NCBI RefSeq assembly: GCF_048403405.1
Contig: NZ_CP183129.1
Length of the DNA: 64,000 bases
Source of the DNA: Escherichia coli
GTDB taxonomy: Bacteria; Pseudomonadota; Gammaproteobacteria; Enterobacterales; Enterobacteriaceae
Strand: one strand, 5' to 3'
The notes under the pieces were generated by a model. That model ran no database searches. It had not been told where the DNA came from and was given only the letters and a program-made list of their open reading frames with translations. A program made the translations under genes and the position numbers. This document shows positions 7,918-61,265 of the stretch, piece by piece. Every line of letters starts with the position of its first letter. Position 1 is the first letter of the stretch.

Positions 7918-9345
7918 CTAGCGCGACTGCTGATTATATTCATCATCGCGTTGATAAGCTTCATCATTCGGCTGCTCCGGAACCGACCGCAGTCGATACT
8001 CTTCATCCTGGCTCACCGCCTGTTCAGCCAAATCCGGATTAATCTCGCGTTTAATTTCTACCCCTAAACCGCGAAACGCTTCTGCCTGCGCCAGCACATT
8101 TCCGCGACCTGAAGAGAGTTTTTTCATTGCCTGGCGGTAGTTATCCTGCGCTTTGTCGAGACTTTGACCAATCGCGGACATGTCATCGATGAACAAACGC
8201 ATCTTGTCGTACAGCTTGCTGGCACGATCGGCGATTTGCTGGGCGTTGCGGCTTTGATGCTCATAACGCCACAGGTTGGCGATAGTGCGCAGCGCCACCA
8301 GCAGCGTAGTCGGGCTAACCAGCATGATATTGTTTTTCAACGCTTCGGTGATCAGCTCCGGCTGGCGGTCAAGCGCCAGTAAAAAAGCGGGTTCAACGGG
8401 AATAAACATCAGCACGTAATCCAGGGTTCGCAGCCCCGGCAGCTGTTGATAATCTTTGCGTCCCAGCAAACGGATATGGTTACGCACCGACGCGATATGT
8501 TCCTGTAGCGCGCTTTCGCGGGTGTAGTCATCTTCGGCGTTGAAATAGCGTTCATAGGCGACCAGCGTCATTTTGGCGTCGATCACCACATCTTTTCCCT
8601 GCGGCAACCGCACGATGACATCCGGCTGCATCCGCGAGCGGGCGTCATTTTCGATGCTGACCTGGGTTTCATATTCATACCCTTCACGCAGACCGGAAGC
8701 CTCCAGCACCCGCGTCAATACTACCTCGCCCCAGTTGCCCTGGGTTTTATTGTCGCCTTTCAGCGCGCGCGTCAGGTTGATCGCTTCCTGGGCCATTTGC
8801 GCGTTGAGCTGCTGGAGATTGCGAATTTCGTGGGTCAGGGTATGGCGTTCTTGTGCTTCTTTACCAAAGCTGTCCTGAACCTGACGGCGGAAACCGTCCA
8901 GTTGTTCACGTAGCGGCGACAACAGGCTGTTCAGACTCTGACGGTTTTGCTCATCAACCCGGCGATTGCTGTGCTCAAAAATACGGTTGGCGAGGTTTTC
9001 AAACTGCTCACTGAGGCGCTGCTCGCTGTTAATCATCTGGCGAATTTTATCGTCAGCATGTTGCTGTGCGGCTTCCATCCGCGTGGTTACTTCACGCAGA
9101 TCGGCCTCCAGAGAGGTGTTAATACTTTGCAGGCTGCGCACTTCGTTATTGAGTAACTCGCACTCAGCGCGCCAGTGCTCGCTTTGGGTAATTTGTTGTT
9201 TTGCCGCGCTTAACTCCGCGACCATCTCTTCACGTTCAGCTAATTGCTCGGCTTTTTGCTGCGCATGTTGATAACTGGCAAACAGCCAGCCAATTGCCAC
9301 ACCCACCAACGCAATAACTGCGTAAACCATGATTGAGAAATCCAC
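7918..9345 (-). CDS. rmuC: DNA recombination protein RmuC
   Basis: 475-aa ORF with N-terminal TM helix and long coiled-coil region; located between udp and ubiE. Confidence 0.9.
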   Translation of the reverse strand: MDFSIMVYAVIALVGVAIGWLFASYQHAQQKAEQLAEREEMVAELSAAKQQITQSEHWRAECELLNNEVRSLQSINTSLEADLREVTTRMEAAQQHADDKIRQMINSEQRLSEQFENLANRIFEHSNRRVDEQNRQSLNSLLSPLREQLDGFRRQVQDSFGKEAQERHTLTHEIRNLQQLNAQMAQEAINLTRALKGDNKTQGNWGEVVLTRVLEASGLREGYEYETQVSIENDARSRMQPDVIVRLPQGKDVVIDAKMTLVAYERYFNAEDDYTRESALQEHIASVRNHIRLLGRKDYQQLPGLRTLDYVLMFIPVEPAFLLALDRQPELITEALKNNIMLVSPTTLLVALRTIANLWRYEHQSRNAQQIADRASKLYDKMRLFIDDMSAIGQSLDKAQDNYRQAMKKLSSGRGNVLAQAEAFRGLGVEIKREINPDLAEQAVSQDEEYRLRSVPEQPNDEAYQRDDEYNQQSR

Positions 9346-9436
9346 AACGCCTCCTGACGCAACAACTTACCCGCACAAAATAGAATTGTGCTGTACAAAC
9401 GTCCAGTTGGAAAGGCATTTCCTGCGAGGCGCTACG

Positions 9437-27601: not shown

Positions 27602-27718
27602 TATATGCCCCTTATGGAATTTTTAGTATTTAGCCGTCCAGATGTTTACACATCCATAATTGGCGGTTACTGTATATTCCTCAAGCGCAAATTATTCATG
27701 CCGAAGTGAAGGACTTTC

Positions 27719-31475: not shown

Positions 31476-32096
31476 ATGACCTTAGAATGGTGGTTTGCCT
31501 ACCTGCTGACATCGATCATTTTAAGCCTGTCGCCAGGCTCTGGCGCAATCAACACCATGACCACCTCGCTCAACCACGGTTATCGCGGCGCGGTGGCGTC
31601 TATTGCTGGGCTTCAGACCGGACTGGCGATTCATATTGTGCTGGTTGGCGTGGGTTTGGGGACGCTATTTTCCCGCTCAGTGATTGCGTTTGAAGTGTTG
31701 AAGTGGGCAGGCGCAGCTTACTTGATTTGGCTGGGAATACAGCAATGGCGCGCCGCTGGTGCAATTGACCTTAAATCGCTAGCCTCTACTCAATCGCGCC
31801 GACATTTGTTCCAGCGCGCAGTGTTTGTGAATCTTACCAATCCCAAAAGTATTGTGTTTCTGGCAGCGCTATTTCCGCAATTCATCATGCCGCAACAGCC
31901 GCAGCTGATGCAGTATATCGTGCTCGGCGTCACCACTATTGTGGTCGATATTATTGTGATGATCGGTTACGCCACCCTTGCTCAACGGATTGCTCTATGG
32001 ATTAAAGGACCAAAGCAGATGAAGGCGCTGAATAAGATTTTCGGCTCGTTGTTTATGCTGGTGGGAGCGCTGTTAGCATCGGCGAGGCATGCGTGA
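31476..32096 (+). CDS. rhtB: Homoserine/homoserine-lactone exporter RhtB (LysE family)
   Basis: 206-aa LysE/RhtB-family membrane protein, divergent from pldB. Confidence 0.9.
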
Positions 32097-32104
32097 AAAA
32101 TAAT

Positions 32105-32134
32105 GTCGGATGCGGCGTAAACGCCTTATCCGAC
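32105..32134. repeat. REP (repetitive extragenic palindrome) element between rhtB and rhtC
   Basis: GTCGGATGCGGCGTAAACGCCTTATCCGAC, the typical enterobacterial REP consensus, between convergent genes. Confidence 0.5.
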
Positions 32135-32157
32135 TTACTCTGATGACGCGTCTGGCA

Positions 32158-32778
32158 TCAACGCGAAATAATCAAATGAATGCCAAATCCGGCAAATAAC
32201 GCCCCGGCAAAACCATCAATCCACTTCGCCAGACGTTGATAACCACGGCGCATTTGCGGCAGGGCAAACAGGCTGGCAACGACGGTAAACCATGCCAGCG
32301 TTTCGACAATAATCAGCGCGAAAATGCCCCAGCGCTCGGTGGTGCCGACGTTATCGCCGACAAACAATGAGAATACCGAACCAAAATAGATAATCGCTTT
32401 CGGATTGGCGAGATTGGTCAGTAAGCCCTTAAGAAAACTACGCCCGCTTTTCGCCAGTTCGACTTGTGGCGCAGGGGCAGAAACAACCTCTTTTTTCAGT
32501 GCACCACGTAGCATCTGGTAACCCATCCAGCAGAGATACAGGCCACCGCCCACCATAATCAGTGTATGCAGCCAGGCCATTTTTTCGATAATCAAATGCA
32601 GGCCAAGCAACGCAATCCCAGCCCAAACCATTACGCCGCAGGTAATGCCCAGCACGCCCATCATCGCTTCTTTACGGGAACGACTGACAGCGGTCTGAGA
32701 GACAAAAAAGAAATCGGGACCGGGGCTCATAAGCGCCACAATGTGCACCATGGCGACGGTGAGGAATAACATCAACAT
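32158..32778 (-). CDS. rhtC: Threonine exporter RhtC (LysE family)
   Basis: 206-aa LysE/RhtB-family paralog convergent with rhtB. Confidence 0.9.
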   Translation of the reverse strand: MLMLFLTVAMVHIVALMSPGPDFFFVSQTAVSRSRKEAMMGVLGITCGVMVWAGIALLGLHLIIEKMAWLHTLIMVGGGLYLCWMGYQMLRGALKKEVVSAPAPQVELAKSGRSFLKGLLTNLANPKAIIYFGSVFSLFVGDNVGTTERWGIFALIIVETLAWFTVVASLFALPQMRRGYQRLAKWIDGFAGALFAGFGIHLIISR

Positions 32779-32841: not shown

Positions 32842-34677
32842 CTACTCTTCGTCATCGCCATCAACATGTGCACGAATCAGCGCCATAAACGGTTTGCCAA
32901 AGCGTTCCAGCTTGCGCATCCCAACGCCGTTAACGCTGAGCATTTCGCTGGCAGTGATCGGCATCTGTTCCGCCATCTCAATCAAGGTTGCGTCGTTAAA
33001 CACCACGTACGGCGGGACATTGCTTTCATCGGCAATCGATTTACGCAGTTTGCGTAATTTGACGAACAGTTTGCGATCGTAGTTGCCGCCGAAGGATTTC
33101 TGCATCGCTTTCGGTTTGAGCGCCACGATACGTGGCACGGCAAGTTGCAAAGAGGATTCGCCGCGCAGCACCGGACGCGCAGCCTCTGTCAGTTGTAGGG
33201 CAGAATGCTGGGCAATATTTTGCGTCACCAGGCCGAGGTGAATCAGCTGGCGGATCACGCTCACCCAATGTTCATGGCTTTTATCACGGCCCATGCCATA
33301 GACTTTCAGTTTGTCATGACCATAGTCGCGGATACGCTGGTTATTAGCGCCACGAATCACTTCCACCACATAACCCATCCCAAACCGCTGATTCACACGA
33401 CCAATGGAGGAAAGGGCAATCTGAGCATCGGTTGAACCATCGTATTGTTTCGGCGGATCGAGGCAGATATCGCAGTTCCCGCACGGCTCCTGCCGCCCTT
33501 CGCCAAAGTAGTTCAGCAGCACCAGACGACGGCAAGTTTGCGCTTCGGCAAACGCGCCCATCGCATTGAGTTTATGACGTTCGATATCCTGTAACTGCCC
33601 CTGCGGTTTCTCTTCCAGACAACGACGCAGCCACGCCATATCCGCCGGATCGTAAAACAGCATCGCTTCCGCGGGCAGGCCATCACGCCCGGCGCGTCCG
33701 GTTTCCTGATAATAGGATTCAATGTTGCGCGGAATATCAAAATGCACCACGAAGCGAACGTTTGGTTTATTGATGCCCATGCCGAACGCCACCGTCGCCA
33801 CCACAATTTGCAGGTCATCGCGCTGGAATTTCTCCTGCACATCAGCGCGAACATTATTTTCCAGCCCGGCATGATAGGCCGCCGCGCTAATTCCCTTGCT
33901 TTGCAGGCGCGCAGCGGTGTCTTCTACTTTCGCACGACTATTACAGTAAATAATCCCCGACTTACCGCGTTGTTCCTGTACATAACGCATCAACTGATCG
34001 AGCGGTTTGAATTTCTCCATCAGCATGTAGCGAATATTCGGACGGTCAAAACTGCTGATTTGAATCAGCGGATCGTTCAGCCCCAGCAGGCGCACGATAT
34101 CCTGGCGCGTGGTGTCATCGGCTGTGGCAGTCAGCGCCATAAACGGCAGCGTCGGAAAACGCTGACGCAGCTGACCGAGGGCAGCGTATTCCGGGCGGAA
34201 ATCGTGACCCCATTGGGAGATACAGTGCGCTTCATCAACGGCTAATAACACCGGATTCCAGTGCGCCAGATGCTCAAGAAAGTTATCCAGCATCAGACGT
34301 TCCGGCGCGATATAAAGCAGGCGGATTTGCCCGGTGCGACAGCCTGTCATAACTTCAAGTTGCTGCTCGCGGGTTTGCGTCGAGTTAAGGCACGCCGCCG
34401 CCACGCCGTTGGCTTGCAGTTGATCCACCTGATCTTTCATCAACGAAATCAGCGGTGAAACAACCACGGTAAGGCCGTTTAGCAATAAGGCAGGAATTTG
34501 ATAGCAAAGGGATTTTCCGCCACCAGTGGGCATGACGACGAGGCAATCGCGGCCGGAAAGCACAGTGTCGATAATTTCTTCCTGGCCGGGGCGAAACTGT
34601 TGGTAGCCAAAGGTTTCTTGTAAAACCTGTTTAGCTCCGGACTCCAGATTCAACACTTCCGCCTGCGCCACATTCAC
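32842..34677 (-). CDS. recQ: ATP-dependent DNA helicase RecQ
   Basis: 611-aa ORF with DEAH helicase motifs ([15 protein letters not shown]), zinc-binding cysteines ([10 protein letters not shown]) and an HRDC region. The canonical start may be 2 codons downstream. Confidence 0.95.
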
Positions 34678-34689
34678 CCCGATTGCCTG

Positions 34690-34720
34690 AAATAAAAACA
34701 GGCGCTATTTTCAGCGCCTG
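34690..34720 (-). terminator. Rho-independent terminator downstream of pldA, immediately upstream of recQ
   Basis: On the minus strand: CAGGCGCT-GAAAAT-AGCGCCTG hairpin followed by TTTTTATTT, between the pldA stop (34804) and the recQ start (34677). Confidence 0.5.
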
Positions 34721-34803
34721 CGCGAGAAACTGCAATGCTTTTAGTCTCTGAGAGGGTAATCCTGGATACTGGATTCCAGATTTGCCAACCACTCAACCGT
34801 TCA

Positions 34804-41102: not shown

Positions 41103-42005
41103 ATGAAAAAAACGCTCGCAACGTTATTTTTATTAACGTGTCTGGGATCATCATCCGCCTATGCAGATAACGCTTTGATTTTACAAACTGATTTTAGCCT
41201 GAAAGATGGTGCCGTCTCGGCGATGAAAGGGGTCGCATTCGGCGTTGACCATAATCTTAAAATCTTTGATTTAACACACGAAATTCCACCGTATAACATC
41301 TGGGAAGGCGCTTATCGCCTGTATCAGACTGCCAGTTACTGGCCGCAAGGTTCGGTGTTTGTTAGCGTGGTCGATCCGGGCGTAGGCACTGACCGTAAAT
41401 CGGTGGTGCTAAAAACCAAAAACGGTCAGTACTTCGTTTCACCAGATAACGGTACGCTCACTTTGGTGGCACAAACTCTGGGTATTGATAGCGTCCGGGA
41501 AATCGACGAAAAAGCTAACCGCCTGAAAGGTTCTGAAAAGTCATATACCTTCCACGGTCGTGACGTGTATGCCTACACCGGTGCGCGTCTGGCTTCCGGG
41601 GCGATTACGTTCGAACAGGTGGGGCCAGAGCTTCCTGCAAAAGTTGTCGAACTTTCTTATCAGAAAGCAAAAGCAACAAAAGGTGAAGTGAAGGGCAATA
41701 TCCCGATTCTCGATATTCAGTACGGCAACGTCTGGAGCAATATCAGCGACGAGTTGCTGAATCAGGCAGGAATCAAACTCAACGACACGTTGTGTGTGAC
41801 CATTTCCGAAGGTTCCCAGCAAAAATACGCAGGGAAAATGCCGTATGTCGCAAGCTTCGGCGATGTGCCGGAAGGCCAGCCGATGGTGTATCTGAACAGC
41901 TTATTGAATGTTTCCGTGGCGCTGAATATGGATAATTTTGCGCAGAAACATCAGGTTGCGTCTGGTGCTGACTGGAATATTGATGTGAAGAAGTGCGCTA
42001 AGTAA
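41103..42005 (+). CDS. DUF62-family protein (SAM hydroxide adenosyltransferase / fluorinase-chlorinase-like fold) with predicted signal peptide
   Basis: 300-aa ORF. N-terminus MKKTLATLFLLTCLGSSSAYA looks like a cleavable Sec signal; the mature part begins DNALILQTDFSLKDGAVSAMKGV, resembling the conserved N-terminal motif of SAM-hydrolase DUF62 proteins as I recall it. Confidence 0.65.
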   Translation: MKKTLATLFLLTCLGSSSAYADNALILQTDFSLKDGAVSAMKGVAFGVDHNLKIFDLTHEIPPYNIWEGAYRLYQTASYWPQGSVFVSVVDPGVGTDRKSVVLKTKNGQYFVSPDNGTLTLVAQTLGIDSVREIDEKANRLKGSEKSYTFHGRDVYAYTGARLASGAITFEQVGPELPAKVVELSYQKAKATKGEVKGNIPILDIQYGNVWSNISDELLNQAGIKLNDTLCVTISEGSQQKYAGKMPYVASFGDVPEGQPMVYLNSLLNVSVALNMDNFAQKHQVASGADWNIDVKKCAK

Positions 42006-42049: not shown

Positions 42050-44212
42050 TCACACCGTCTCCAACCGGGCGTAAGCCGCCACCAGCCATTTAATACCCTG
42101 GCCCTGGAACGCCACCTGCAAACGGCTATGCTCACCGCTGCCTTCCATATTGACGATGGTGCCTTCACCAAACTTAGCGTGGCGTACGCGCTGGCCGAGC
42201 TTGTAGCCGCTGTCGTTCTCGACCATCGGCGTACCCATCCGTTGATGGCTGACCGGGCGGCTTACCGTGGCGCGCAGGCGCACCTCTTCCACACACTCTT
42301 CCGGCAGCTCGCCGATAAAGCGCGATGGGCGATGGTAAACCTCTTTGCCATACAGACGGCGGGTTTCCGCGTAGGTCAGCGTCAGTTTCTGCATCGCGCG
42401 GGTTACGCCAACGTAGGCCAGACGGCGTTCTTCTTCCAGACGTCCGCCTTCATCCAGCGACATCTGGCTTGGGAACATGCCCTCTTCCATACCGACGATA
42501 AACACCTGCGGGAACTCCAGCCCTTTCGCCGAGTGTAGCGTCATCAACTGCACCGCATCCTGCCAGGTATCCGCCTGCCCCTCGCCCGCTTCCAGTGCCG
42601 CATGGGAGAGGAACGCCTGCAGCGGCATTAAATCTTCGTCTTCTTCGTTGTAGCTGAACTGGCGCGTCGCCGTTACCAGTTCCTCTAAGTTTTCGATACG
42701 CGTCTGGCCTTTTTCGCCTTTCTCCTGCTCGTACATGGTGCGCAGGCCGGAGTCTTTAATTACCCGGTCAGTCTGTACATGCAGCGGCATATCGGCAGTT
42801 TCCTGCGCTAAGGCGTCGATCAGTTCCATAAACCGCTGTAAGGCACTGGCAGCACGTCCGGCGAGGGCTTTTTCCTGCAACAGTTCACGACATGCCTGCC
42901 AGAGTGTTAACTGGCGATCGCGCGATGTCTGACGTACCACGTCCAGCGTCCGGTCACCAATACCCCGCGTTGGTGTATTCACCACGCGCTCAAAGGCCGC
43001 GTCGTCATTACGGTTGGCAATCAGGCGCAGATACGAGAGCGCATCTTTGATTTCCTGGCGTTCGAAGAATCGCATCCCGCCGTAAATACGGTACGGCATA
43101 CTTGCCTGTAACAGTGCTTCTTCCAGCACACGCGACTGGGCGTTGCTGCGGTAGAGAATGGCGCACTCGGCAAGCGCCCCGCCGTTGTCCTGCCAGGTTT
43201 TGATACGGTTAACCACAAAACGCGCTTCATCGAGTTCGTTAAAAGCGCAATAGAGGGAAATAGGCTCACCATCCGCGCCATCGGTCCACAGTTTTTTACC
43301 CAAACGCCCGTTGTTGTTTTCAATCAGGGCGTTCGCGGCGCTCAGAATATTGCTGGTAGAGCGGTAGTTCTGCTCCAGACGGATAGTTTCAGCACCGGGG
43401 AAATCATTGAGGAAACGCTGAATATTCTCCACCTGCGCTCCACGCCAGCCGTAGATTGACTGATCGTCATCGCCAACGATCATCACTTTGCCGGTATCGC
43501 CCGCCAGCAGGCGGATCCACGCATACTGAATGTTGTTGGTATCCTGGAATTCGTCCACCAGGATATTGGTAAACCGTTCGCGATAGTGCTGAAGGATATG
43601 CGGCTTGTTAAGCCACAACTCGTGAGCACGTAGCAGCAGCTCGGCGAAGTCCACCAGGCCCGCGCGGTCACACGCTTCCTGATACGCCTGATACACCTTC
43701 TGCCAGGTCTGCTCCACCGGATTACCGTAGCTTTGAATATGATGTGGACGCAGGCCTTCATCTTTCTGGCTGTTGATGTACCACATTGCCTGGCGCGGCG
43801 GCCACTGCTTCTCGTCGAGGTTCATCGCCTTGATTAGGCGTTTGAGCAGGCGTAGCTGGTCCTCGCTGTCGAGGATCTGAAAATCCTGCGGCAGATTGGC
43901 GTCCATATGGTGCGCACGCAGCAGACGGTGCGCCAGCCCGTGGAAGGTGCCGACCCACATGCCGCCCTGGCTGGTGCCCATCAGCTGCCCGATACGATGA
44001 CGCATCTCCGCCGCCGCTTTGTTGGTAAACGTTACCGCCATAATCGAATATGGCGAGCAGTTTTCCACGCTCATCAGCCAGGCGATACGGTGCACCAGTA
44101 CGCGCGTCTTACCACTGCCCGCGCCCGCCAGCACCAGAAGGTTGCTGCGTGGCGCGGCCACCGCTTCGCGCTGTTTGTCATTAAGGCTGTCGAGCAGGTA
44201 AGAAACGTCCAT
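42050..44212 (-). CDS. uvrD: DNA helicase II UvrD
   Basis: ORF open to 44401 (783 aa); canonical 720-aa UvrD starts at MDVSYLLDSLNDKQREAVAAP (ATG at 44210-44212). Walker A motif GAGSGKT. Confidence 0.95.
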   Translation of the reverse strand: MDVSYLLDSLNDKQREAVAAPRSNLLVLAGAGSGKTRVLVHRIAWLMSVENCSPYSIMAVTFTNKAAAEMRHRIGQLMGTSQGGMWVGTFHGLAHRLLRAHHMDANLPQDFQILDSEDQLRLLKRLIKAMNLDEKQWPPRQAMWYINSQKDEGLRPHHIQSYGNPVEQTWQKVYQAYQEACDRAGLVDFAELLLRAHELWLNKPHILQHYRERFTNILVDEFQDTNNIQYAWIRLLAGDTGKVMIVGDDDQSIYGWRGAQVENIQRFLNDFPGAETIRLEQNYRSTSNILSAANALIENNNGRLGKKLWTDGADGEPISLYCAFNELDEARFVVNRIKTWQDNGGALAECAILYRSNAQSRVLEEALLQASMPYRIYGGMRFFERQEIKDALSYLRLIANRNDDAAFERVVNTPTRGIGDRTLDVVRQTSRDRQLTLWQACRELLQEKALAGRAASALQRFMELIDALAQETADMPLHVQTDRVIKDSGLRTMYEQEKGEKGQTRIENLEELVTATRQFSYNEEDEDLMPLQAFLSHAALEAGEGQADTWQDAVQLMTLHSAKGLEFPQVFIVGMEEGMFPSQMSLDEGGRLEEERRLAYVGVTRAMQKLTLTYAETRRLYGKEVYHRPSRFIGELPEECVEEVRLRATVSRPVSHQRMGTPMVENDSGYKLGQRVRHAKFGEGTIVNMEGSGEHSRLQVAFQGQGIKWLVAAYARLETV

Positions 44213-44270
44213 TGGCACCGCCGCGTAAAAATAGGTTGGGCGGAGAAGCGCAACGCCCTCCGCCAAAAAG

Positions 44271-44286
44271 CTGGGTATATATACAG
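44271..44286 (-). promoter_or_regulatory. LexA (SOS) box upstream of uvrD
   Basis: CTGGGTATATATACAG (CTG-N10-CAG with AT-rich spacer) about 60 nt upstream of the uvrD start; matches the uvrD SOS operator as I recall it. Confidence 0.7.
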
Positions 44287-44295
44287 ATTTGCTGA

Positions 44296-45012
44296 TTATA
44301 TCAGCGAGGTCAGAGATGCCAACCGGGAAATTTCCAGATGCGGGAGTAAACGGCTGTCCCAGGTTTGCATCAGATCGCCATTTTCCGGTCTGATCCAACA
44401 AGCCTGCATTCCGCTGCGAATTGCCCCACCCACGTCAGTGGTGAGATCGTCCCCAACATGTAAGATCTCGCCGATCGGCACGTTGAGTTTTTCCGCAGCC
44501 AGAAAGTACATATCGCTGAACGGTTTTGAGCGCCCGTGCGGGCCAGCGCGCAGCACAAACTCAAAATAATCCCCCAAACCAAACAGTTCCGGCTGGGCGT
44601 TACCGTTGGTGATCGCCACCAGCGGCCATTTCTTCGCCAGCTGTTTTAAGGTGTCGTGGGTTTGCTGCGGGACATCGATTCGGCTGCGCCATTTGGCAAA
44701 GTTGATCATTGCCGCGTGTGCGCCTGCACTGGCTTCTTCGGCACTCAGCCCGGCGTCGAGCATGGCTTGTTCAATCGAACGAAAACGCCAGCGCGTCACG
44801 TCGTGATAAATCTCGGGTTCCGCTTCCCGTACCGCCTGGCGCAGGCGTTGCAGATCTTCATTCTGGAAGCTGCGCAGCGCCGGATGATAATTTTGCACAA
44901 AGGTAAGCGCCTCTCGCTCGGTGCGCAAAATCACCGGACGGTTATCGTAAAGGGTATCATCCAGGTCAAAGGTGAGCGCCGAGATGCGCCCCAAAGGCCG
45001 GTAAAAACGCAT
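44296..45012 (-). CDS. yigB: HAD-family phosphatase YigB
   Basis: 238-aa ORF with HAD motif I ([12 protein letters not shown]); last gene of the dapF-yigA-xerC-yigB operon. Confidence 0.85.
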
Positions 45013-59777: not shown

Positions 59778-59879
59778 TTAGCGCCGTTGCGGGGGTGGAT
59801 AATACGGACTTCCCACCCCTCTGTCTAGTCCCTTTTTAAATAAATTGCGCGTTTGGTTACGGTTTGTGCGTTTTGCTGC

Positions 59880-61265
59880 TTATTCCTCCAGTTTATGCGC
59901 TTTCCCGTGGCGATTAAGCCCAAAAACTTTATAAATCGCCGTCACCGCCAGCATAAAGATGATGCCGACAAACAGCGACATACGCGTATCTTCATTAAAG
60001 TACATGCCGATCAAAACGCAAATCAGGAATGCCATTGTTACGTAGTTGGCCCACGGGAACAGGATTGAGCGGAACGGATGGCTGGCAATCGCCGCTTTAT
60101 GCGCACGACGAAAACGCAGCTGGCTTATCAATATCACAAACCATGGCACCATCCCCGGAAGCACGCTGGCACTGTAGACGTAGACAAACACACGCTGCGG
60201 ATTGGGAATGATGTAGTTCAGGCATGAGCCAATTAACAGGATAGCAATAGATACTGCCACACCCGCAACCGGTACGCCGTGACGGGAAACTTTCGCCATC
60301 GCCGTCGGTAACTGACGGTTTTTCGCCAGTGCGTAGAGCATACGTCCGCAACTGTACATGCCGCTGTTACAGCCAGAGAGCGCAGCCGTCAGCACCACAA
60401 AGTTGATAATGCCCGCCGCTGCGGTAATGCCGATTTTGGCGAAAGTCAGTACGAACGGGCTGCCGTTACTGCCTATTTCATTCCACGGGAAGATAGTAAC
60501 GATAACGAAAATCGCGCCTACGTAGAAAATCAGGATCCTCCACAGCACTTTGCCTACTGCACTGCGCAGCGTCACCTGCGGATTCTTCGCTTCACCAGCG
60601 GTAATGCCAATCAGCTCCACGCCCTGGTAGGACGCCACCACAATACACAATGCGGTCAGGAACCCTTTCCAGCCCCCCGCAAAGAAACCGCCATGCTCTG
60701 TGAGATTGCTAAAACCAATCGACTGCCCGCCATTGCCAAAACCAAAGAAAATCACGCCCAGGCCAATGACAATCATCACGATAATCGTGGTGACTTTGAT
60801 CATCGCGAACCAGAACTCGATTTCGCCGTACAACCTCACCGCAGTCAGATTCGCCAACGCCACCAGCGCCACCGCGATTAATGCGGGTATCCACTGCGCC
60901 ATCTCCGGGAACCAGAACTGGACATAAACGCCAATGGCGGTGATTTCTGAGATCCCCACCGCCATCCACATAAACCAGTAAGACCAGGCGGTGAGATAGC
61001 CAAAGAACGGGCTCATATAACGATGCGCATAAACGGCGAACGAACCGGTAACCGGTTCGAGGAATAACATTTCGCCCATTGAACGCATGATGAAAAAGAC
61101 GAACAGCCCGGCGATGATATAGGCCAACAATACGGATGGCCCGGCCCATTTCAGGGTACTGGCGGCCCCCATAAACAGGCCGACGCCAATGGTGCCCCCC
61201 AGGGCGATGAGTTCGATATGTCGAGCTTCCAGCCCACGCTGTAGCTCTGGTTTGTTATCTGCCAT
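59880..61265 (-). CDS. yifK: APC-family amino acid permease YifK
   Basis: 461-aa 12-TM amino-acid permease in the conserved position beside the argX-hisR-leuT-proM tRNA cluster. Confidence 0.9.

Follow-up and report, generated by a model that had tools for sequence, protein, structure and literature searches.

LexA operator of the uvrD promoter in an Escherichia coli chromosome: sequence, conservation and comparison with known SOS boxes

Introduction

The helicase encoded by uvrD is needed for mismatch repair and excision repair in cells that are not undergoing the SOS response. The SOS box of the gene has been in the literature since 1983 and is present in every compilation of the LexA regulon. 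Easton and Kushner reportedly characterised the uvrD LexA operator of E. coli K-12 in 1983 and are also said to have described attenuation of uvrD. A LexA dimer placed over the footprint of RNA polymerase lowers initiation, and RecA-stimulated self-cleavage of LexA relieves this repression.

As a classical SOS gene, uvrD of E. coli has a heterology index of 8.5, a 2.1-fold induction by AZT and a 1.7-fold lexA dependence (PMC11228462). Its promoter is "early" after UV irradiation, with a peak at 35-38 min at all doses (PMC5999292), and the gene is included in a review of the SOS response (PMC6590174). In Salmonella, uvrD has a LexA box and was induced 13.9-fold by nalidixic acid, while the heterogeneity of its basal expression was LexA-independent (PMC8072944). 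Below, the uvrD regulatory region found in a 64,000-nt stretch of an E. coli chromosome, hereafter the window, is compared with these systems.

Results and Discussion

Identity and position of the uvrD operator

The features of the uvrD regulatory region, in window coordinates and following the direction of transcription, are the following.

44296..45012, minus strand: yigB coding sequence (HAD phosphatase, 238 aa), from its translation, a Pfam HAD hydrolase match and the RefSeq annotation; its 3' end bears the uvrD promoter
44317..44322, minus strand: -35 hexamer TTGGCA of the uvrD promoter, inside yigB on Leu-Ala codons
44295..44303, minus strand: extended -10 element TGaTATAAT, with the hexamer at 44300..44295 and containing the yigB stop codon TAA at 44298..44296
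44291..44305, no strand: second palindrome GCTGAT-ATA-ATCAGC, whose left arm covers the last yigB codons and the TG of the extended -10, and whose right arm lies in the discriminator
44288..44290, minus strand: transcription start predicted from promoter geometry, at A residues 6-8 nt past the -10 hexamer
44269..44288, minus strand: LexA operator (SOS box) assigned to uvrD, 20-mer ATCTGTATATATACCCAGCT, with the 16-mer core CTG-N10-CAG at 44271-44286
44227..44264, minus strand: leader hairpin GGCGGAGGGCGTTGCGCTTCTCCGCC, with the stem at 44264..44239, followed by CAACCTA and by TTTTT at 44231..44227
42050..44212, minus strand: uvrD coding sequence (DNA helicase II, 720 aa), from its translation, Pfam matches to UvrD-helicase and UvrD_C and the RefSeq annotation; the product also has a tudor domain

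On the plus strand, positions 44271-44286 read CTGGGTATATATACAG. An earlier note, made from the sequence alone, had correctly placed this site upstream of uvrD; its orientation has to be turned, since uvrD and yigB are both minus-strand genes, so that, as transcribed, the operator is CTGTATATATACCCAG (44286..44271, minus strand). Both the CTG and the CAG triplets of the core are without mismatch, and the distance from the operator to the uvrD ATG (44212) is 56 nt (56-58 nt as given in the comparison with Salmonella). The 25-mer AAATCTGTATATATACCCAGCTTTT corresponds letter for letter to the uvrD LexA motif of PMC3009722 (Tables 4 and 7). Moreover, the 146 nt from the -35 region to the uvrD start, including promoter, operator and leader, are the same as in K-12 MG1655 at every base. 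The coordinates that had been proposed for the SOS box were thus right, the site having both the K-12 sequence and that of the published uvrD LexA box, and the suggested comparison with the characterised uvrD operator returned identical sequences.

Taken together, the sequence itself, its identity with K-12, its rank with a LexA matrix, its conservation and the promoter geometry, all from the present analysis, and the LexA dependence and induction known from the literature, indicate that 44288..44269 on the minus strand is almost certainly the LexA operator of the uvrD promoter.

On the other side of the gene, directly downstream of uvrD (41103-42005), lies a 300-aa ORF that the annotation of strain 7/2 gives as a SAM hydrolase / SAM-dependent halogenase family protein.

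Scoring with a LexA matrix

A symmetrised position weight matrix was built from 17 published E. coli LexA boxes (PMC3009722, Table 4), with uvrD excluded. The uvrD 20-mer at 44269-44288 scored 15.9-16.3 bits, the top of all positions in the 64 kb (window mean -28.4, sd 9.4). The matrix scoring that had been proposed for this site therefore ranked it first. Its score falls inside the range of the training sites (12.9-29.2 bits, n = 17), in the lower part. An independent-base model predicts about 0.08 sites of such a score per 64 kb; the score was reached in 14 of 300 first-order Markov simulations of 64 kb (4.7%). By score alone, the uvrD site is not overwhelming.

The second-best site in the window was AACTGGACGTTTGTACAGCA at 9389-9408 (14.6 bits), 43 nt upstream of a 475-aa RmuC-family ORF (7918..9345, minus strand). 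This is the known SOS box of rmuC/yigN, which is listed as an SOS gene (PMC8072944, PMC11228462, PMC6590174), and the matrix thus recovers true sites. Two other LexA-like sites scored about 12 bits each. One is a half-site in the metE-metR intergenic region (27668-27687), and the other overlaps the 3' end, with the stop codon, of a 461-aa ORF (59874-59893). Since 93 of the 300 simulations reach about 12 bits, both are probably chance sites. In the region upstream of recQ (34678-34803; recQ itself at 32842..34677, minus strand), no LexA-matrix site above 6 bits was found.

The bare motif CTG-N10-CAG occurs 30 times in the window, against 13.7 times in dinucleotide shuffles. This enrichment was dropped as evidence, because the abundance of the two trinucleotides (CTG 1314, CAG 1583) accounts for the excess: their counts predict 32.5 matches, and the bare motif is not enriched in the window over this expectation. 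The trinucleotide bias behind the apparent excess is probably codon usage, and dinucleotide shuffles are a misleading null for CTG-N10-CAG in E. coli coding DNA. The AT-rich core ascribed to the uvrD box was confirmed, as eight of its ten spacer bases are A or T, the highest A/T content among the 30 matches.

The two halves of the uvrD operator are unequal: the left one (CTGTAT) is good, the right one (CTGGGT) is weak. Its outer flanks are AT...CT against the consensus TA...TA. These deviations point to an operator of intermediate strength. The term "canonical", which the earlier note had used for the box, therefore suits the core triplets, which are perfect, but not the site as a whole, which is of mid strength and, with CTGGGT in place of CTGTAT in its right half, not near-consensus. 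An operator of such predicted strength fits a housekeeping helicase that must be substantially expressed at the basal level and is induced only about 2-fold in the SOS response. This small induction, together with the LexA-independent heterogeneity of basal expression, suggests that LexA acts on uvrD as a modulator and not as an on/off switch.

Conservation of the site

A scan for the UvrD N-terminus, with one genome per species, yielded 80 loci from Enterobacterales, Vibrionales and Alteromonadales, in each of which the match, and hence the predicted uvrD start, begins at position 1501. When the whole locus of about 3.9 kb was scored with the LexA matrix, the top site was located within 200 nt upstream of uvrD in 78 of the 80, a figure to be read as a count and not as a probability, the loci being phylogenetically related. 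The median margin between the best and the second-best site was 10.4 bits, and the two exceptions are Colwellia-type. The pattern is unambiguous and indicates, at the level of predicted sites, that a LexA-type box upstream of uvrD is conserved across three orders of Gammaproteobacteria. The count agrees with the description of uvrD as a ubiquitously conserved SOS gene (PMC5963079).

Among the loci of Vibrionaceae (L046-L080, box at about 1460-1490), most Vibrio and Aliivibrio boxes have ATG for CTG in their left half, as in TTATGTATAAATAACCAGTA. These boxes with ATG lie 6-21 nt from the start ATG and have a conserved degenerate half-site.

Within the species, the 801-nt region around the site was present in 5425 of 5426 complete E. 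coli genomes, where it is annotated as yigB and uvrD, and it was 100% identical to that of several human and swine E. coli isolates. The 60 nt of promoter and operator fell in the band of at least 99% identity in 5409 of the 5425 genomes, and the surrounding 801 nt in only 730.

These data bear on the question of whether CTG-N10-CAG arose here by chance, in intergenic DNA rich in A and T, and has no regulatory role. Such a reading could draw on the bare motif being found at its expected frequency (30 vs 32.5) and on the simulated windows that contained an equal or better site (4.7%), but it leaves unexplained that the sequence is that of the published operator, that it sits at the predicted start of a near-consensus promoter, that in 78 of 80 loci of three orders an orthologous LexA site is the best of its locus, and that the site is almost invariant within E. 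coli. LexA-dependent induction of the gene has also been published (PMC11228462, PMC5999292). The conservation and the literature effectively refute the idea of a chance match, to which we attach next to no probability, and the site is treated below as the uvrD operator.

Promoter geometry and overlap with yigB

A consensus scan of 43900-44700 revealed a single promoter, on the minus strand, with the structure TTGGCA-16-TGnTATAAT, in which 11 of 12 positions match the consensus. Read as transcribed, the region from the -35 hexamer to the uvrD start codon is laid out as TTGGCA tctctgacctcgcTGa TATAAT cagcaa ATCTGTATATATACCCAGCT tttt GGCGGAGGGCGTTGCGCTTCTCCGCC caaccta TTTTT acgcggcggtgcca ATG. 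The operator starts 6 nt past the -10 hexamer TATAAT, and the uvrD promoter is embedded in the last nine codons and the stop codon of yigB.

This arrangement was found in all 38 Enterobacterales loci with a locatable promoter. In every one of them (38/38) the -35 hexamer is TTGGCA, TTGGCT or TTGGAT and falls on yigB codons, for Leu-Ala or, in three loci, for Leu-Asp; the promoter spacer is 16 nt; and the last yigB codon is NTA (ATA, CTA, TTA or GTA), followed by TAA. TATAAT is thereby kept while the terminal residue of YigB switches between Ile, Leu and Val. The 3' end of yigB is under a constraint beyond the needs of its protein, which supports the promoter assignment. In E. coli yigB, retention of TATAAT forces the use of the rare Ile codon ATA.

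The position of the box relative to this promoter varies. In the Enterobacterales it begins between -1 and +12 nt past the -10 hexamer, most commonly at +9. The register of the box is free, but an overlap of the initiation region is always retained.

With a start predicted at about 44288-44290, the operator would span roughly +1 to +20. In undamaged cells, the bound LexA dimer would overlap the region occupied by RNA polymerase and, probably by steric occlusion, reduce initiation. Upon DNA damage, RecA filaments would stimulate the self-cleavage of LexA, the operator would empty and the transcription of uvrD would rise modestly.

An operator at this position might also act mainly on a different source of transcripts, with LexA, and likewise the leader hairpin, serving as a roadblock to read-through from dapF-yigA-xerC-yigB and not as a repressor of initiation. 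The scan of 43900-44700 called no terminator on the minus strand in the 83 nt that separate yigB from uvrD, and uvrD has substantial LexA-independent basal expression (PMC8072944), two observations that would be in line with such a role. However, the near-consensus promoter directly before the box, whose sequence is kept at synonymous positions of yigB, speaks for initiation at this promoter as the main source of uvrD mRNA. A role mainly as a roadblock is therefore unlikely in our view, although roadblock and repression of initiation are not mutually exclusive, and repression of initiation at the uvrD promoter is the reading that we prefer.

The palindrome next to the operator

The sequence GCTGATTATATCAGC occupies exactly 44291-44305; its two 6-bp arms are perfect and enclose a centre of 3 nt. 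It does lie beside the SOS box, as had been claimed, but it is only partly within the end of yigB: positions 44296-44305 belong to the gene and 44291-44295 are intergenic. Its left arm consists of the last sense codons of yigB (..CTG ATA) and includes the TG of the extended -10. The centre and the start of the right arm complete TATAAT, which holds the yigB stop codon TAA, and the remainder forms the discriminator, which separates the -10 from +1. The window has 20 palindromes of this class, against 18.9 +/- 3.9 in simulated sequences.

As a LexA site, the palindrome was ruled out: its CTG and CAG are 7 nt apart, not 10, and none of the 20-mers overlapping 44291-44305 scored above -5 bits with the LexA matrix. 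The right arm also has a narrow distribution. E. coli and E. albertii alone have ATCAGC, against ATCACC in most Enterobacteriaceae; Pantoea, Erwinia and Yersinia have the LexA box itself in place of the right arm, directly after the -10.

The same observations weigh on a broader proposal, in which GCTGATATAATCAGC (44305..44291) would work as an operator of its own, bound by LexA as a second site or by some other dimeric regulator over the -10 box. Arms of 6 bp without a mismatch, with the -10 hexamer at their centre and the LexA box directly next to them, and the presence of CTG...CAG are what such an operator might look like. However, the spacing and the matrix scores do not fit LexA, palindromes of the class occur at chance frequency, the left arm is accounted for by the yigB codons and the extended -10, and the right arm completes the palindrome in E. 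coli and E. albertii alone and is absent where the LexA box abuts the -10. A second operator is thus highly improbable. Given its chance frequency, its lack of a LexA score, its unconserved right arm and its overlap with the -10 and the yigB codons, the palindrome is read here as an incidental by-product of the -10 region.

The leader hairpin

Between the operator and the uvrD start codon, the leader contains a hairpin whose isolated stem-loop (44264..44239) folds at -17.9 kcal/mol (z = -2.26), with a run of five T that begins 7 nt past the stem. The terminator consensus scan of 43900-44700 did not call this hairpin, owing to that distance between stem and T-run. The fold of the whole 86-nt leader had no extra stability over shuffled sequences (z = +0.67), and an Rfam search of 44100-44400 at E <= 1 matched no RNA family. 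The REP-like hairpin and its T-run, within a 77-nt leader, would be the likely site of the reported attenuation, and the hairpin is probably the uvrD attenuator of Easton and Kushner (1983).

The likeness to REP elements comes from a comparison of uvrD leaders. Where E. coli has CTTCTCCGCCCAAC, the sequence is CTTATCCGCYCTAC or CGTATCCGCCCTAC in the loci L004, L011 (Pluralibacter) and L012 (Enterobacter), and another REP-like unit comes after it in inverted orientation. In L004 (1393-1470) and in L011 and L012 (1394-1470), the arrangement is GGCGGATGGCG...CTTATCCGCCCTAC and then an inverted GTAGGCCCGGTAAGCG... unit, an order similar to that of paired REP elements. In most other Enterobacterales the leader is short and lacks such a hairpin. 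From these leaders, the E. coli hairpin looks like a decayed REP-type element that is found in some lineages only, the resemblance to REP resting on the intermediate forms in other species. In the window itself, a search for the REP tail CTTATCCGGCCTAC with up to two mismatches did not match the uvrD leader, and a classic REP at 32105-32140 could be aligned with the leader hairpin only in part. This classic REP, GTCGGATGCGGCGTAAACGCCTTATCCGACTTAC, lies between two convergent 206-aa ORFs, 31476..32096 (plus strand) and 32158..32778 (minus strand).

If the attenuator is a captured and decayed REP element, the attenuation of uvrD would be a recent addition derived from a mobile repeat and not part of the ancestral SOS control. 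Besides this, the perfect palindrome at the -10, which is seen only in the two Escherichia loci and arises from a single substitution in its right arm (ATCACC to ATCAGC), could be the site of a second regulator of uvrD; taken as one reading, the two ideas are very unlikely.

Comparison with known LexA-regulated promoters

The uvrD SOS box is already known, and it lies here in an ordinary E. coli chromosome. The value of this case is that of a positive control: a true operator was correctly located by a reader who had the sequence only, and a simple matrix from which uvrD had been excluded returned the uvrD and rmuC boxes as the two best sites in 64 kb. As a discovery it carries little weight, and the promoter inside yigB and the REP-like hairpin are tidy illustrations, not new biology.

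The closest described system is the uvrD operator of K-12. The window has the same sequence over the -35, the -10, the operator, the leader and the start codon, and the same flanking yigB and uvrD genes; there are zero differences in the regulatory region, although the strain of the window is itself not K-12.

With the strong E. coli boxes (umuDC, sbmC, recN and sulA; consensus TACTG(TA)5CAGTA), the uvrD box shares the 16-bp CTG-N10-CAG palindrome, the AT-rich spacer and the placement over the promoter or initiation region. It differs from them in strength, with 15.9 bits against 22-29 bits and a heterology index of 8.5 against about 2-5 (PMC11228462). The induction of uvrD is also weaker and earlier than that of the genes with strong boxes (PMC11228462, PMC5999292).

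The LexA box of uvrD in Salmonella enterica is orthologous to the one in the window; it is likewise located upstream of uvrD and responsive to DNA damage (PMC8072944). It differs in lying 105 nt from the ATG, against 56-58 nt in E. coli, and in having a heterology index of 11.48 (PMC8072944). Comparison with the leaders of other Enterobacteriaceae suggests that the extra length in Salmonella may consist of a pair of REP-like leader elements.
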